IMG/VR virus record: IMGVR_UViG_2548876869_000013
Location: 1-41,985 of that record
Length of the DNA: 41,985 nucleotides
Origin: a virus
Lineage: Duplodnaviria; Heunggongvirae; Uroviricota; Caudoviricetes
Direction: 5' to 3' (one strand)
Shown here: piece by piece, positions 1,403-37,269 of the stretch
Position numbering within the stretch: position 1 is the first letter of the stretch
Layout of the letters: each line of letters opens with the position of its first letter
Notes under the pieces: model-generated
What the model was told of the DNA's origin: nothing
Seen by the model: the letters and a program-made list of their open reading frames with translations, nothing else
The model's database searches: none
Position numbers and translations under genes: made by a program

Positions 1403-3313
1403 ATGACCATGACTACACGATATAGATCTGATATTGATGGCCTACGAGCACTTGCTGTCCTTCTTGTTTTTGCTTATCACCTCAAGCTATCACCTTTTAG
1501 TGGCGGCTTTATTGGTGTTGATGTCTTCTTCGTTATCTCTGGATTTCTTATCACTGGTATTGTTATAAAAGCTATTGACAGAAATAGTTTCTCATTATCT
1601 GACTTCTTTAACAGAAGAATAAAGAGAATAGTACCAAATGTTTTTTTAGTTGCATCTTGTACAATTATAGCCGGATGGTTCATCCTATTACCAAAGGATT
1701 ATTCTTCACTTATTAGTAGCTATTTGTACACATCCATCTACGCTGCTAACTTTTATTTTTGGAAAGCGACAGGAGCTTATTTTTCATCTTCTGCAGATGA
1801 GATGCCACTACTTCATATGTGGTCATTGGCCGTAGAGGAGCAATATTACTTTATATGGCCAATTATTATTTTACTTGCACTAAAGCACATTAAGACAAAA
1901 CATATTGGTGTTATTACATTAATAATTTCAGTATTTGCCTTTATATTCTCTGAAATAATGGCAAGGCGTTACGCTGGGTTCTCATATTATATGCCAATCA
2001 CACGCTCTGGAGGCTTGCTTCTAGGGTCCGCCCTAGCATTAATGAATAGAGATTATAAAAAAATAAGGGAGTTTAATTCTTACATAGTAGTAATATTAGG
2101 AACTATTCTTATTGCGGCATCATCTGTAACAGTGAACAAATTATCAGTGTTTCCTGGGTTAAATTCTGCGATACCATCATTTGGTGCAATGTTAGTAATT
2201 TTAGGGGGGAACGGTTTTAATGGCAATGTGATATCAAAAATCTATGGTTCAAAAATAATATCCACAATTGGATTGCTATCATTCTCAATATATCTTTGGC
2301 ACTGGCCGTTGATTGCATATTCAACATATATGGGAGTGATAGACTCACTTGAAGTCAAATTGACAATAGTACTCCTGACATTTATTTTATCATATTTAAG
2401 TTTAAAATTCATTGAGAATCCAATAAGAAAATCAAAAATATCATTTGTTCGTTCTTTTATTTTTATTAACACATTTTTTATTGCAACTGCTTTTATTGTG
2501 TTGTTTATGTCAACTATAACAAATGGCTTCAAATTCAGAAGTGTAGGAGAAAATCATAATTTAGATGTGAAATATGCTGGAATGGACGAAGGATGGTGTC
2601 ATGTTAGCGCAGAAGGAAAAAATGGCATAACTTTTAATGAGTCTATGGCCAAATGTTATATAGGTGATAAAACATCAAATAAAGAAGCTCTATATATTGG
2701 TGATTCCAATGCAGGGCATTACGGTCCATTTGTAGATGAAATGGGTCGCAGGGCTGGAATAAAAATAAATCAACTGAGCACTTCATCTTGTTACCCAACA
2801 AGAGAAGTTAAGAAAGATGGAGAAAACCCTGATGTCTGCATAAACTTCAGAAGAATAATTAATGAAAAAATAAAATCTGGTAAATATGATACAATTATCA
2901 TTGCTAATAGATGGGCAAGGGATGATAAGAATATGTCATATAAAAACGCTAACTTCACCGAGTTCCTATCATTTTACTCATCTCACGCAAAGAAAGTTAT
3001 TATTATGGATCAAATGCCTGAGTGGGTAATAAATCCCGCTGCCTGCTACGAGAGAGGAACATGTGATGCTGAAACTAATTTTGATCTAGCACCAGGATTG
3101 GATGAGTCGCGTAAAAAAATAGAAAGCGCAGCATCACATTTTAATAATGTTTATCTTGTTGACCCGTACTACCTAATGCTTAAGAATAAAAAATACACAC
3201 CTTTCGCAATGGGATACCCTATGTACCATGACAATGGTCATTTAAGCATCAATGGAATGATGTGGATTGCGGAAAAATACTTGCAAGATAATAAAAACCC
3301 ACTTGAAGATTAA
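1403..3313 (+). CDS. Membrane acyltransferase-3 family protein with C-terminal SGNH-like domain (OafA/Oac-like O-antigen acetyltransferase)
   Basis: 640-aa ORF; N-terminal motif RSDIDGLRALAVLLVFAYHL and multiple hydrophobic segments typical of acyltransferase_3; soluble C-terminal half; very AT-rich versus flanks. Start ambiguous (TTG 1391, ATG 1403 or 1409). Confidence 0.75.
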   Translation: MTMTTRYRSDIDGLRALAVLLVFAYHLKLSPFSGGFIGVDVFFVISGFLITGIVIKAIDRNSFSLSDFFNRRIKRIVPNVFLVASCTIIAGWFILLPKDYSSLISSYLYTSIYAANFYFWKATGAYFSSSADEMPLLHMWSLAVEEQYYFIWPIIILLALKHIKTKHIGVITLIISVFAFIFSEIMARRYAGFSYYMPITRSGGLLLGSALALMNRDYKKIREFNSYIVVILGTILIAASSVTVNKLSVFPGLNSAIPSFGAMLVILGGNGFNGNVISKIYGSKIISTIGLLSFSIYLWHWPLIAYSTYMGVIDSLEVKLTIVLLTFILSYLSLKFIENPIRKSKISFVRSFIFINTFFIATAFIVLFMSTITNGFKFRSVGENHNLDVKYAGMDEGWCHVSAEGKNGITFNESMAKCYIGDKTSNKEALYIGDSNAGHYGPFVDEMGRRAGIKINQLSTSSCYPTREVKKDGENPDVCINFRRIINEKIKSGKYDTIIIANRWARDDKNMSYKNANFTEFLSFYSSHAKKVIIMDQMPEWVINPAACYERGTCDAETNFDLAPGLDESRKKIESAASHFNNVYLVDPYYLMLKNKKYTPFAMGYPMYHDNGHLSINGMMWIAEKYLQDNKNPLED

Positions 3314-32872: not shown

Positions 32873-33058
32873 TTATGCCGCTTTGCGGTAAGCGCTTTCT
32901 TGATACTTCAGGGCGCCAGCTGTAACGACTTCCAGTCGATAGGCGTCTTTCTCTGGGATGACTTCCTTCCACTGAGAGACTGCTGCGTCGCTAATGCCTA
33001 ACGCTTTAGCTACAGCACGCTGGGTTCCGAAGTGGTCGATAACATCTTTCTTGTACAT
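32873..33058 (-). CDS. cro: Cro repressor, P22-type
   Basis: 61 aa MYKKDVIDHFGTQRAVAKALGISDAAVSQWKEVIPEKDAYRLE.. essentially matches recalled P22 Cro. Confidence 0.95.
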   Translation of the reverse strand: MYKKDVIDHFGTQRAVAKALGISDAAVSQWKEVIPEKDAYRLEVVTAGALKYQESAYRKAA

Positions 33059-33064
33059 AGACTC

Positions 33065-33138
33065 GCTCCGAAATTAAAGAACACTTAAATTATCCACCAA
33101 AGGAATCTTAAGTCAAGTTTATTTAAGATGTCTTAACT
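33065..33138. promoter_or_regulatory. OR operators with divergent PR/PRM
   Basis: P22-type 18-bp operator-like palindromes ATTAAAGAACACTTAAAT (33073-33090) and ATTTAAGATGTCTTAACT (33121-33138). Confidence 0.65.
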
Positions 33139-33789
33139 ATGAAAACTCAATTGATGGGAGAGCGCATTCGCGCTCGGAGAAAAGAACTCAAGATCAGGCA
33201 GGCCGCACTTGGAAAGATGGTCGGCGTGTCTAATGTTGCCATATCTCAGTGGGAACGCTCTGAGACAGAGCCAAATGGAGAGAATCTTCTCGCCCTGGCT
33301 AATGCGTTGAAGTGTTCCCCTGACTATCTGATGAAAGGAGAGGAAAGTCTTTCAAACATTGCCTATCACAGTAGGCATGATCCAAGAGGGTCATACCCTC
33401 TGATTAGCTGGGTGAGCGCAGGATGCTGGATGGAAGCTGTAGAACCATATCATAAGCGTGCAATAGATAACTGGTACGATACAACCGTAGACTGTTCAGA
33501 AGATTCGTTTTGGTTGGACGTGAAGGGAGACTCAATGACGGCTCCGGCCGGTCTCAGTATCCCTGAAGGAATGATAATACTCGTCGATCCTGAAGTAGAG
33601 CCGCGTAACGGGAAACTGGTAGTTGCAAAGCTCGAAGGAGAAAACGAGGCAACTTTCAAGAAGTTAGTTATTGATGCAGGCAGGAAGTTTCTAAAACCAC
33701 TTAACCCACAATATCCGATGATCGAGATCAACGGAAACTGCAAAATCATCGGCGTAGTTGTCGATGCAAAACTAGCAAACCTTCCATAA
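33139..33789 (+). CDS. c2: C2 repressor, P22-type, with LexA-like autocleavage domain
   Basis: 216 aa; HTH region and C-terminal S24-like domain closely match recalled P22 C2. Confidence 0.95.
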   Translation: MKTQLMGERIRARRKELKIRQAALGKMVGVSNVAISQWERSETEPNGENLLALANALKCSPDYLMKGEESLSNIAYHSRHDPRGSYPLISWVSAGCWMEAVEPYHKRAIDNWYDTTVDCSEDSFWLDVKGDSMTAPAGLSIPEGMIILVDPEVEPRNGKLVVAKLEGENEATFKKLVIDAGRKFLKPLNPQYPMIEINGNCKIIGVVVDAKLANLP

Positions 33790-33790
33790 G

Positions 33791-33812
33791 GGGGCATTCG
33801 CCCCTTTTTTTT
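33791..33812 (+). terminator. Rho-independent terminator after c2
   Basis: GGGGCATTCGCCCC followed by TTTTTTTT. Confidence 0.75.
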
Positions 33813-33829
33813 ATTTCCTTTAAAAATCA

Positions 33830-33911
33830 AAGCCAAACTTAAGTCACGAAAGAAAATTTAAGTTTTCTTCAAAAATATTCTTGACCGTTAATTAAAGAGA
33901 TCTTAAATTTA
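33830..33911 (+). promoter_or_regulatory. OL operators and PL promoter
   Basis: Operator ATTAAAGAGATCTTAAAT (33891-33908); -35 TTGACC (33881-33886), 17-nt spacer, -10 TAAATT (33904-33909). Confidence 0.6.
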
Positions 33912-33954
33912 AGCCATCAGCAGGACGCTGGTAGCCAAACGGAATAGATTGGCA

Positions 33955-33996
33955 GGCTCTTTAACATTGATGGGATTGTCCCGCCGAAATGCGGGA
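33955..33996 (+). promoter_or_regulatory. nutL-like site (boxA + boxB)
   Basis: GCTCTTTAACA (33955-33965) and hairpin TCCCGCCGAAATGCGGGA (33979-33996), same as nutR. Confidence 0.55.
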
Positions 33997-34560
33997 ACTG
34001 AGTTTAACCAAACAGGAGGTGCCGTAATGGTGCACTAACGCGGTTAGACCGCAGCCGAAAGGCAATGCAGCAGTAATGATGCTGCCCCGAGTCGCGTAAT
34101 GGCGAGCAGGTTTAGCAGACCGATGTGAGGGTAAATAAGGGAACATGCTCCGGAAAGGCAGCGCGAATGCCAGACGCGCACCGGTTATCAGCGGCTAATA
34201 AGCGACAGAGACTCAAGGGCATGAGCGCGCTCACTGCGAGAGTGTGAGTCAAAGAGTAGTTGGCTTTGGGGTGACGTGAAGTGCAGCTGCACGACGGCAA
34301 CCGGAAGATAAGCACCCGGCGCGTCACCGCCAAAGTCAATTCCATAGGCGTTATGCAGCCGCCACCATATTCAAGAAAGCTGCACAAGAGGTAGGAGGAT
34401 TTATGTGAATACTTACATTCAATTGAGAGATTAATTAAATAGAACTGATCGAGCAGAGTCCATAAAGGCTCATAAATGCTCTTCCATCCCCGTCTAATTG
34501 GCGGGGAAGGAAACCACTTTGTAATAAAAAAATTCCAAAGTTGTTTCATCGGAGGTCAAC

Positions 34561-34860
34561 ATGACAGTAGTCATTACATATCTGGCTGACGATAACGCCA
34601 GAAATCGCCGCAGAGCACACAGACAGGCTCAACGTGAACAGGCAATGCAAGAACAGCGACTGGCGCGAAAGATTGCGCTAAAGCTCTCTGGTTGCGTCAG
34701 AGCAGATAAAGCAGCATCACTCGGAAGCCTTCGCTGCAAGAAGGCAGAAGAAGTAGAGAGTAAACAGAATCGTATTTACTACCGCAAGCCACGCAGTGAA
34801 ATGGGTGTGACTTGTGTTGGTCGCCAGAAAATGAAATTAGGCAGCAAACCACTTATTTGA
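34561..34860 (+). CDS. N-like antitermination protein
   Basis: 99 aa; N-terminal arginine-rich motif DNARNRRRAHRQAQREQ; GGAGG RBS; first gene of PL operon. Confidence 0.7.
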   Translation: MTVVITYLADDNARNRRRAHRQAQREQAMQEQRLARKIALKLSGCVRADKAASLGSLRCKKAEEVESKQNRIYYRKPRSEMGVTCVGRQKMKLGSKPLI

Positions 34861-34868
34861 GGTGAGAT

Positions 34869-35339
34869 ATGACAAAATCATGGAGCGTACCTTTTCCTGA
34901 ATCAGAAACTGAACATGATGGAATGCCTGTTTTCTGGAGATTCCAGGCGACAGTTGAAGAAGATGGGATAAAAATATTCGCACTTCAATATATAGCTTTT
35001 CATCAGACAGAGCATTATGCATGGTTGGTTCCTGCGCATTGGATTGTTAATTTTAAACCAGCACCAAATCAGTGGTTACAGGAATGGAAACAAAGGAGAA
35101 ATAGATATGCAATTAAGAAAGTAGCAAAAAATGCAGAAAGATCTTTTGCATTCCCAACGAAGAAACTTGCCATTGAGAGTTTATTGCGCCGGAAGAAATA
35201 CCATTTAATGAGAATCAAACAAGATTTGGCTGTTGTATCAACTCTTGTTGATGGGATGAAGAATATTGATACATCAACACCAGATATTGAATATAACTTT
35301 GGGCACAACCAAGAAACAGAAAATTGGGTATTTTATTAG
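34869..35339 (+). CDS. Hypothetical AT-rich early-left moron protein (156 aa)
   Basis: GAGGTGAG RBS; composition much more AT-rich than neighbours; no family recognised. Confidence 0.55.
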   Translation: MTKSWSVPFPESETEHDGMPVFWRFQATVEEDGIKIFALQYIAFHQTEHYAWLVPAHWIVNFKPAPNQWLQEWKQRRNRYAIKKVAKNAERSFAFPTKKLAIESLLRRKKYHLMRIKQDLAVVSTLVDGMKNIDTSTPDIEYNFGHNQETENWVFY

Positions 35340-35443
35340 TACGAGTAAGCACTGTGTATTCATTCCAACGAGTGAATACACGGAGCAATGTCGCTCGTAA
35401 CTAAACAGGAGCCGACTTGTTCTGATTATTGGAAATCTTCTTT

Positions 35444-35468
35444 GCCCTCCAGTGTGAGGGCCTTTTTA
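35444..35468 (+). terminator. Terminator between the 156-aa gene and cIII
   Basis: GCCCTC-CAGTGT-GAGGGC then CTTTTTAT. Confidence 0.55.
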
Positions 35469-35533
35469 TATGCATACCAATAACGCTTCACTCGAGGCGT
35501 TTTCGTTATGCAATCAAACAGAAGGAGCATCCT

Positions 35534-35704
35534 ATGCAACAGTTCGCTATTGCAGGGGCGGCATCGGTTCGCCCTTTCAACCCGATTTTATCGGTACAGC
35601 ATTCACGAAAAAATATTTTAACCGGAGCAGACTTTAAACAACCAAGAATGAAAAGTTTGCTCGAAAAGCTTTGGGATATTTTGAAACAACAAGGCCGTCC
35701 ATGA
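35534..35704 (+). CDS. c3: cIII-like protein
   Basis: 56 aa; MQQFAIAG.. and ..KSLLEKLWDILKQQGRP resemble lambda CIII; AAGGAG RBS. Confidence 0.7.
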   Translation: MQQFAIAGAASVRPFNPILSVQHSRKNILTGADFKQPRMKSLLEKLWDILKQQGRP

Positions 35705-35871
35705 GTTTTACAGATAACTGGTCAGACGAAGAATTCATTCGTCAGATGAAAGAATTAATCGGTAACGAAGGAGATATTCATGTCACTTGCAACCACAGTG
35801 AAGGAGAGCAAGTTACAGAGACGCATGTACACGCAGCAGGCGTTAATGTATCGCCAGAAGGGAGATCGTGA
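35701..35871 (+). CDS. Small hypothetical protein (56 aa), translationally coupled to cIII
   Basis: ATGA start/stop overlap with cIII; no family recognised. Confidence 0.4.
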   Translation: MSFTDNWSDEEFIRQMKELIGNEGDIHVTCNHSEGEQVTETHVHAAGVNVSPEGRS

Positions 35872-35960
35872 AGGTGTTCGCGTATTTTTAAATGCGGCAA
35901 AGACTGAAGTATTAAATCAGCGTTATTTCCTTGGGCCATGCCCATTCTGAGAACAAACAT

Positions 35961-36566
35961 ATGAGCAAAGAATTTTACGCAAGACTGGCAGCTATTCAGG
36001 AGAACTTGAACGCGCCAAAGAATCAGTACAACTCATTCGGTAAATATAAATACAGAAGCTGCGAAGACATTCTTGAAGGCGTTAAGCCGTTACTGAATGG
36101 CCTGTTTTTATCAATCAGCGATGAAGTTGTGTTGATTGGTGATCGGTATTACGTGAAAGCCACGGCAACTATTACCGATGGCGAAAACAGTCATACGGCA
36201 ACCGCTCTTGCACGAGAGGAAGAAAGCAAGAAAGGAATGGATTCTGCACAAGTTACGGGAGCTACAAGCTCTTATGCACGCAAGTATTGCCTCAATGGTT
36301 TGTTCGGCATTGATGATGCGAAAGATGCAGATACCGACGAGCATAAACATCAGCAGAACGCAGCAGCAAAGCAATCAAAACCATCACCTACACCTGAACA
36401 GGTTCTAAAAGCATTCACTGACGCAGCATTGCAGAAAAACACCGTGGAAGAGCTTAAACAGGCGTTCGCCAAAGCGTGGAAGATGCTCGAAGGCACACCG
36501 GAGCAGCACAAAGCGCAGGACGTTTACAACATCAGACGAGACGAATTAGAAGGAGCTGCTGCTTAA
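35961..36566 (+). CDS. erf: Erf single-strand annealing recombinase, P22-type
   Basis: MSKEFYARLAAIQENLNAPKNQYNSFGKYKYRSCEDILEGVKPLL.. matches recalled P22 Erf. Confidence 0.85.
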   Translation: MSKEFYARLAAIQENLNAPKNQYNSFGKYKYRSCEDILEGVKPLLNGLFLSISDEVVLIGDRYYVKATATITDGENSHTATALAREEESKKGMDSAQVTGATSSYARKYCLNGLFGIDDAKDADTDEHKHQQNAAAKQSKPSPTPEQVLKAFTDAALQKNTVEELKQAFAKAWKMLEGTPEQHKAQDVYNIRRDELEGAAA

Positions 36567-36949
36567 TGGCACATTCGATTACTGTAAGACTAAACAAGCC
36601 CGCAAGAGAGTTTCAGGCCGGGGAAAATATCGGATTCAACATCCGTGCTGGCGTTCAGTATTACGATCGCCAGACAAAAAAGAAAGAATGGACAAACTAC
36701 AGCACCGTTGTATTTGCCAAGCCGGGAGCGCAAGCGGATTACTACCGTAGTGTTCTTGTTGAAGGTGGCATTGTGGAAATTACCGGAGAAAACATCAGGG
36801 TTGATGTTTATCAGGGGCAAAATGGTCAATCCATCACTCTTGAATTACTGAATGCAAAGATTGGATTTGCAACTTCAGGAAACAGCCCGCAGCAGCAAAG
36901 TAGTAACCAGCAGAACACTCCTGTATACGACGATTCCATCCCATTCTGA
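36566..36949 (+). CDS. Single-stranded DNA-binding protein (SSB-like)
   Basis: OB-fold-like N-terminal region, Gln/Ser-rich linker and acidic tail ending DDSIPF; TAATG overlap with erf. Confidence 0.7.
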   Translation: MAHSITVRLNKPAREFQAGENIGFNIRAGVQYYDRQTKKKEWTNYSTVVFAKPGAQADYYRSVLVEGGIVEITGENIRVDVYQGQNGQSITLELLNAKIGFATSGNSPQQQSSNQQNTPVYDDSIPF

Positions 36950-36972
36950 TTTAGAAAAATAAGGATTTAATT

Positions 36973-37269
36973 ATGCCAGCGCCTCTGTATGGTGCGGATG
37001 ACCCGCGCCGCTGTTCCGGCAATTCCGTATCGGAGGTGCTGGATAAATTCAGGAAAAACTACGACCTGATAATGTCGCTACCGCAGGAAACGAAAGAGGA
37101 AAAGGAATTTCGCCATTGTATATGGCTTGCAGAGAAAGAAGAACGCGAGCGAATTTACCAGACATCAATCCGACCATTCCGCAAAGCCACATACACCCAC
37201 TTCCCTGAATATATCGACCCGCGCCTGCGTAATTACCGCTCACGCTATGGCGCTATCAGTAATGACTGA
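36973..37269 (+). CDS. Hypothetical protein (98 aa); possibly Abc2-like anti-RecBCD, unverified
   Basis: Position and size fit P22 abc2 but I cannot verify the sequence from memory. Confidence 0.45.
   Translation: MPAPLYGADDPRRCSGNSVSEVLDKFRKNYDLIMSLPQETKEEKEFRHCIWLAEKEERERIYQTSIRPFRKATYTHFPEYIDPRLRNYRSRYGAISND

Follow-up and report, generated by a model that had tools for sequence, protein, structure and literature searches.

A described system close to the locus reported here is the ral region in the early-left (pL) operon of phage lambda. Ral is a 66-aa protein and a dispensable accessory cargo of that operon. The DNA between ral and ea10 encodes the small RNA LPR1/PreS, which is Hfq-dependent and has its 3' end at terminator tL2a (bioRxiv 10.1101/2024.10.31.621285). 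PreS, about 88 nt long and processed to about 68 nt, is specific to the lytic cycle and can be detected at 10 min post induction; it enhances phage replication, represses alaS and stimulates the translation of host dnaN (bioRxiv 10.1101/2024.10.31.621285).

The 156-aa gene analysed here is present in sequence databases as gene 45 of HK97, L0079 of the Shiga toxin phage 933W and many further copies. The sequence of this gene is therefore already known, under the annotation 'hypothetical' throughout, and a literature search with L0079, HK97 gp45, accession numbers, the PHROG identifier and descriptive phrases found no characterisation. What is new here is the exact equivalence of its position with the ral slot, the identity of the downstream element as PreS/tL2a, likely co-expression with N, membership of a wider superfamily, and a confident fold model that has no solved relative.

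The window, i.e., the whole stretch of 41,985 nt that was analysed, is a P22/HK620/Sf6-like phage or prophage. In lambda-DE3, which carries the immunity region of phage 21, a repressor gene for 216 aa and an N-like ORF of 300 nt follow each other in the same order and with the same lengths as here (repressor gene at 33139-33789). The initial annotation had described an AT-rich gene for a 156-aa protein directly after N, with a ribosome-binding site of its own, and both points are correct. Positions of the gene and the surrounding features are given in Table 1.

Table 1. Features of the N-cIII region in the window (positions from the first nucleotide of the window).
Feature	Position	Strand	Remarks
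Candidate pL promoter	33881..33909	+	TTGACC-17 nt-TAAATT; consensus match only
nutL-like site	~33956..33997	+	boxA GCTCTTTAACA, then boxB-like hairpin GTCCCGC-CGAAAT-GCGGGAC; read directly
N-like antiterminator gene, 99 aa, lambda-DE3 type	34561..34860	+	PHROG 271, E 1.2e-35
Slot left flank	34807..34871	+	N 3' end, Shine-Dalgarno and ATG; common to HK97, 933W, lambda-DE3 and CUS-3
Shine-Dalgarno GAGGTGA	34859..34865	+	4 nt before ATG; read directly from the sequence
156-aa CDS, homologue of HK97 gp45 / 933W L0079 (PHROG 1636)	34869..35339	+	ATG start
Slot right flank	35349..35471	+	97-98% identical to DNA 3' of ral in lambda-DE3, CUS-3 and APEC O78
12-bp hairpin	35354..35381	+	GTGTATTCATTC / GAGTGAATACAC with loop CAAC and one G-U pair; directly precedes the inferred start of PreS
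PreS/LPR1 homologue, ~88 nt	35381..35468	+	3' end at tL2a; match to lambda ral-ea10 intergenic DNA
Intrinsic terminator, lambda tL2a equivalent	35444..35468	+	6-bp GC-rich stem, 6-nt loop, T-run
cIII, 56 aa	35534..35704	+	PHROG 550, E 1e-22

The Shine-Dalgarno sequence is strong and overlaps the TGA stop codon of N (34858-34860), leaving a gap of 8 nt between the two genes. With this arrangement, translational coupling of N and the 156-aa gene is plausible. The GC content of the gene is 36.3% (28.7% at third codon positions) against a window mean of 45.9%. About 6% of all 471-bp windows are equally low in GC (standard deviation 4.6%), so the gene is clearly AT-rich and not the extreme of the window. 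It is a real and strongly conserved phage gene: its coding status is supported by conservation at the protein level down to 55% identity in other Enterobacterales, by dN/dS ratios of 0.07-0.32 in comparisons where dS is unsaturated, and by a full-length profile match in which residues 1-156 align with positions 1-156 of the 156-column profile of PHROG 1636, a family of unknown function (E 2.7e-112).

The gene is widespread. At the DNA level (471 nt) it is 100% identical to a gene of phage Huey, 99.8% to gene 45 of HK97 and 99.4% to L0079 of 933W. Using tblastn, the homologue was also found in H-19B, where the ORF is unannotated and the protein identity is 99.4%, and in dozens of Stx1 and Stx2 converting phages. 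More distant orthologues with 55-85% identity occur in Salmonella phage NX263, Pectobacterium, Brenneria, Rosenbergiella and Cronobacter. The exact protein is encoded on at least 1,000 contigs; the names given in the sources are 'hypothetical' or 'prophage protein' in every case, and neither more than 70 cluster members nor the matches of the profile search are named differently. Both HK97 gp45 and 933W L0079 lie in the same neighbourhood, after N and before a terminator and cIII, and together with the H-19B ORF they represent the same gene with the same flanks and the same downstream terminator. The present copy differs in its setting, since it follows a different N allele (lambda-DE3 type) at a distance of 8 nt and is part of a P22/HK620-like phage. 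The near-identical gene (99-100%) thus occurs in phages with unrelated N and immunity alleles, i.e., HK97, 933W, H-19B and P22-like podoviruses. The gene is present both in classic model phages and in phages of pathogens.

The initial annotation had also proposed that the gene occupies the position of ral-type anti-restriction and host-takeover genes in lambda and P22, and alignment of the flanks supports this more strongly than could be foreseen from the window. Against HK97 and 933W, the module is 99% identical over approximately 34807-35471 despite the unrelated N alleles upstream. Against lambda-DE3 and CUS-3, homology continues up to the ATG (34871) and resumes at 35349, 10 nt past the stop codon, and the DNA in between is ral. 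The left-flank DNA thus follows a different N allele in HK97 and 933W and precedes ral in lambda-DE3 and CUS-3. The right flank also matches lambda itself throughout the shared block of the alignment. Because identical flanks enclose ral in lambda-DE3 and CUS-3, the 156-aa gene and ral represent alternative cargos for a single slot. Its left flank is common to both as far as the start codon, and its right flank begins no more than 10 nt past the stop. As with ral, the place of the gene in the pL operon is after N and ahead of the tL2a element.

Other cargos are found as well. The CUS-3 interval contains ral and a 140-aa ORF; the latter was considered as a relative of the 156-aa gene and turned out to be unrelated. 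Genes of the sieB type fill the same interval in other relatives, and phi296 carries ral and the 156-aa gene in tandem. Of 5,426 complete E. coli genomes, 2,239 contain the right flank and 563 the entire module, i.e., about one genome in ten. As judged from these alignments, the gene is one of several alternative cargos that are swapped between two conserved anchors. This shows a non-essential, horizontally exchanged cargo of the early-left operon in the slot between N and PreS/tL2a, and it identifies the conserved PreS/tL2a element as the recombination anchor on the right-hand side. The two proteins share dispensability and an early pL position, whereas they differ in length (156 and 66 aa), lack sequence similarity and may co-occur in tandem. 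No Ral match was found in Pfam or NCBIfam, and no alignment was obtained between the gene and the ral segment of lambda-DE3. Since it is not homologous to ral and stands beside ral in phi296, the gene is not simply a ral substitute.

At the left end of the slot, HK97 and 933W have about 60 nt between their unrelated N genes and gp45 (positions 2939-3000 in both loci, L001 and L002), which correspond to 34807-34868 of the window. In the window this DNA encodes the C-terminal 18 residues of N, and the same DNA is present in HK97 and 933W. From the alignment, the shared segment looks like a recombination scar, as if the 3' end of this N allele had moved along with the cassette.

The right-hand side of the slot was compared with the lambda ral-ea10 intergenic region. 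The DNA at 35354-35468 matches it over the whole shared block, GC-rich hairpin and U-tail included, and the downstream element is, by this sequence match, a homologue of the Hfq-dependent sRNA PreS/LPR1. The 5' end at about 35381 was inferred from the published length. The terminator stem GCCCTC/GAGGGC occupies 35444-35461 and is followed by CTTTTTAT; the U-tail bases differ slightly from those of lambda (CCTTTTTAT here, CGATTTTTTAT in lambda). The same site is annotated as a putative terminator in the HK97 record. The 3' flank folds strongly (z = -4.7), and a scan of 33000-37000 with Rfam 15, which contains no PreS model, gave no match. Whereas the gene upstream of PreS/tL2a is ral in lambda, it is the gp45 homologue here. 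In DNA terms, the hairpin that precedes PreS corresponds to a perfect inverted repeat of 9 bp, and it is retained whether ral or the 156-aa gene lies upstream. Its possible roles are in RNA processing or stability, or as a binding site for a protein.

These results modify the earlier view of the terminator, which had been taken to separate the gene from cIII. The hairpin and T-run are indeed present, but they are no private insulator of the gene, forming part of an element of about 120 nt (35349-35471) that is shared with lambda. Because the tL2a/PreS element is also found in phages that lack the gene, the terminator is no evidence for an autonomous moron.

Between tL2a and the cIII ribosome-binding site, a second terminator-like hairpin is present at 35482-35501 on the + strand (AACGCTTCACTCGAGGCGTT followed by TTCGTT), which is common to HK97 and not found in 933W. 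Two small ORFs similar to HK97 gp42 and gp42.1 (PHROGs 2123 and 1723) directly follow cIII, the three genes spanning 35534-35950. A kil homologue, which HK97 has in the region after cIII, was not detected among the ORFs scanned here.

The expression of the gene can be predicted from its surroundings. Both the candidate pL promoter and the nutL-like site lie upstream of N; the nutL boxA is assigned by its resemblance to the boxA consensus. A scan of the + strand from 33808, just past the cI terminator (33788-33807), to tL2a at 35444 gave no terminator-like site, and no promoter-like site was found between N and the 156-aa gene. The lack of a terminator between pL and tL2a, together with the Shine-Dalgarno sequence on the N stop codon, suggests that the gene is co-transcribed and co-translated with N on an N-independent immediate-early transcript. 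Barring Rho-dependent termination upstream of the gene, which sequence does not reveal, the product probably appears within the first minutes after infection.

The encoded protein is basic (pI 9.1) with an uneven charge distribution. The N-terminal 60 and C-terminal 31 residues are acidic, and residues 61-125 contain 17 Lys/Arg and have a pI of 11.1. No transmembrane segment (maximum Kyte-Doolittle score over 19 residues 0.56) and no signal peptide were found, and a soluble cytoplasmic alpha/beta protein is predicted from the model. The initial annotation, which recognised no family, had suggested remote-homology searches and structure prediction, and these yielded a confident model and no characterised family. 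An AlphaFold model based on a 54-sequence alignment had a pLDDT of 95.3 and a pTM of 0.82. Its first three strands (19-30, 33-46 and 50-55) build a sheet over residues 19-55. Two short helices (56-59 and 66-74) and a further strand (83-86) come next, and residues 98-130 form a single long helix of 33 residues. An earlier run with 22 close homologues gave the same topology with a pLDDT of 62.

Searches for characterised relatives were negative. Nothing significant was found in Pfam, NCBIfam or PADLOC (best PADLOC E 0.018), sequence and profile searches of the PDB returned only noise (E >= 0.13), and a PDB fold search with the pLDDT-95 model gave no match. A Pfam scan of the 54 superfamily members gave only three stray matches, each to a single member. 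On the other hand, a fold search of BFVD returned 11 significant matches, all to uncharacterised phage proteins, including proteins of Erwinia phage phiEa2809, Achromobacter phage phiAxp-3 and phages of Tenacibaculum, Rhizobium and Cellulophaga. Some of the apparently non-lambdoid phages with remote homologues are presumably strictly lytic. The superfamily reaches temperate and lytic phages.

An exhaustive profile search identified 87 cluster representatives of 130-160 aa at E <= 1e-3, and the wider superfamily comprises PHROGs 1636, 13631, 25384 and 28215. Comparison of the enterobacterial profile with that of the remote 'HET...RFAF.TK' clade by hhalign gave a probability of 99.4% and an E-value of 4.8e-21 over 114 columns, and the link is also evident from reciprocal tblastn matches. 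The superfamily shares a sequence pattern ([FY][YF][KR]...E.G[LIV].[IV]...HET...K..RFAF.TK..A..SL..RK..Q..HL.RDL), in which only G33, K87 and A101 are at least 90% conserved across all members. Its part K..RFAF.TK..A..SL..RK..Q..HL.RDL describes the basic surface that the superfamily has in common. Very few polar residues are invariant, which suggests that the protein is probably a binding protein rather than an enzyme. Scans with back-translated patterns from the broad alignments found no stretch that was conserved enough. Two candidate multi-domain relatives (P0059 and P0081) were discarded as artefacts of repeats or low complexity.

The genomic context of the relatives varies. In other lambdoid prophages a relative with 43% identity lies between N and kilR, while in Brenneria and Pectobacterium prophages and in Pseudomonas phage Medea1 the gene is the last one before xis/int. 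The Medea1 relative is located downstream of two DNA methyltransferases. In Salmonella phage NX263 the relative is the first gene of an operon and is followed by a ParB-like gene, a Vibrio phage has it after a Cro-like HTH gene and before Rha, and in a metagenomic phage it follows a PD-(D/E)XK nuclease and a Sak4-like ATPase (AAA_24). The remote homologues, in diverse and apparently non-lambdoid phages such as phiEa2809, phiAxp-3 and NX263, sit in early or accessory gene arrays, sometimes beside DNA methyltransferases as in Medea1. These contexts are those of an early or accessory phage gene, and counter-defence cannot be told apart by them from a role in regulation or DNA metabolism.

Considering position, timing and distribution together, our best guess is that the gene encodes a counter-defence factor or a factor that reprograms host processes early in infection, a proposal that we hold tentatively and with somewhat less than even confidence. 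In such a mechanism, the product would be made with N on the N-independent immediate-early transcript and would neutralise a host barrier to infection or, right as the lytic cycle begins, reprogram a host process. Its conserved basic surface may bind a polyanionic ligand, for which nucleic acids, signals derived from nucleotides, and host immunity proteins that are acidic or handle nucleic acids are candidates, and the protein would probably not act as an enzyme. Identity of the slot with that of ral and the presence of sieB-type genes in the same slot argue for counter-defence, as does the patchy, cassette-like spread (563 genomes with the module against 2,239 with the right flank). Early expression is supported by PreS, which in lambda ends at the same terminator and is detectable from 10 min after induction, and the remote homologues in apparently non-lambdoid phages point to a role outside lysogeny.

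Several findings speak against counter-defence. The gene occurs in tandem with ral in phi296. Anti-restriction genes of the ArdA/KlcA type are shared with plasmids, whereas this gene is present on 11 of 72,556 plasmids, none of them mobilizable. No homology of the product to known anti-defence proteins was found, and its fold matched none of the structurally known ones (ArdA, KlcA/ArdB, Ocr, Tad1/2, Acb1/2, Gad1 etc.). ArdA, ArdB/KlcA, Ocr, Tad1, Acb2 and others are likewise small, early-expressed, patchily distributed and located in accessory hot spots, but the 156-aa protein has no sequence or fold match to them and is absent from mobilizable plasmids. In contrast to the acidic DNA mimics the protein is basic, and an acidic DNA mimic is ruled out. 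A DefenseFinder analysis of phages that carry the gene reported only methyltransferases, Ral and Gam (PMC12502783), and an output that leaves out the 156-aa gene also counts against counter-defence. Finally, some homologues are found beside regulators (Cro-like HTH, Rha, ParB-like) or recombination genes (Sak4-like AAA_24, RecE), with which a developmental or DNA-metabolism role fits equally well.

Such a role would be that of a nucleic-acid-binding accessory factor of phage development, e.g., in early transcription, the lysis-lysogeny decision, or as a recombination/replication helper, acting through its basic helix and without an immunity target. The very basic conserved central region and the conserved basic face of the long helix agree with it, as do the regulator and nuclease/ATPase genes beside the remote relatives and the position upstream of kil and erf/recT modules in lambdoid phages. 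However, the protein has no recognisable DNA-binding motif or fold, and no conserved cognate site was found, the adjacent inverted repeat being present also in phages that carry ral. Moreover, the gene is dispensable, patchy among near-identical phages and replaced by ral elsewhere, which would be unusual for a core regulator. We consider this alternative somewhat unlikely.

The counter-defence proposal can also be extended to the whole family. The gene would then represent a new, structurally novel superfamily of immediate-early proteins, from temperate as well as lytic phages of Proteobacteria and Bacteroidota, that disarm a host immune pathway, and in most Shiga toxin phages it would be a non-homologous functional alternative to Ral in the lambdoid slot between N and tL2a. 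A possible mechanism is that an immune signal or sensor of the nucleic-acid or nucleotide type is sequestered on the conserved basic, aromatic surface. In this extended form the proposal is rather unlikely.

A role in host takeover similar to that of Kil or T7 early proteins appears improbable; the protein would then block or divert an essential function of the cell (transcription, translation, division or the nucleoid) and be toxic when expressed alone. Such a role would agree with the predicted immediate-early timing with N, with the location in the operon segment that contains kil and cIII in relatives, and with the occurrence in diverse non-lambdoid phages, apparently including lytic ones; ribosomes, RNA polymerase or the nucleoid might be contacted by the basic surface. 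On the other hand, no similarity to known host-shutoff proteins was found. Intact and near-identical prophage copies are present in hundreds of genomes, which fits tight repression of pL and is uninformative either way.

The exclusion protein suggested by the initial annotation, i.e., a sieB-like moron expressed from the prophage to protect the lysogen by superinfection exclusion or abortive infection, is very improbable: AT-rich composition, a downstream terminator and sieB-type genes in the same interval of other phages resemble such an architecture, but the gene lies inside the repressed pL operon with no promoter-like site in its 8-nt gap to N, its product has no transmembrane segment, signal peptide or significant defence-model match in PADLOC, its homologues occur in diverse and apparently lytic phages, and the terminator belongs to PreS/tL2a. 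A membrane exclusion protein is ruled out by the lack of a transmembrane segment, and an autonomous moron with its own terminator is ruled out because that terminator is the shared tL2a/PreS element.

Should the gene indeed act in counter-defence or host takeover, its effects could extend to the host range and the induction biology of Shiga toxin phages. An accessory gene of unknown function at this slot will not surprise a specialist, but this gene is worth pursuing as a target, given how prevalent it is in Shiga toxin phages and how clean an experimental handle it offers. The slot equivalence with ral, the likely co-expression with N and the broad superfamily with a predicted fold turn an anonymous ORF into a well-defined subject for experiments.

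Some further observations concern the region upstream of N and the copies in other phages. The interval between cI and N holds no gene in this window, while in related prophages it contains defence cargo: a BstA-type gene with a BstA_C domain in one (L014, 686-1609) and the stk kinase gene in 933W (L002, 857-1903). The leader between nutL and N (33997-34560) is unusually long, about 560 nt, and has no Rfam match. It includes a GC-rich stretch (55.7% at 34000-34400) with a strong AT skew, and an antisense ORF of 145 aa is present on the minus strand (34112-34549). In two phage records, JLK-2012 (JQ347801) and Stx2a_F422 (AP012531), IS629 is annotated beside the region of the gene. The tblastn match to JLK-2012 ends at residue 138, which together with the adjacent IS629 suggests that an insertion has truncated the homologue, at least in JLK-2012.
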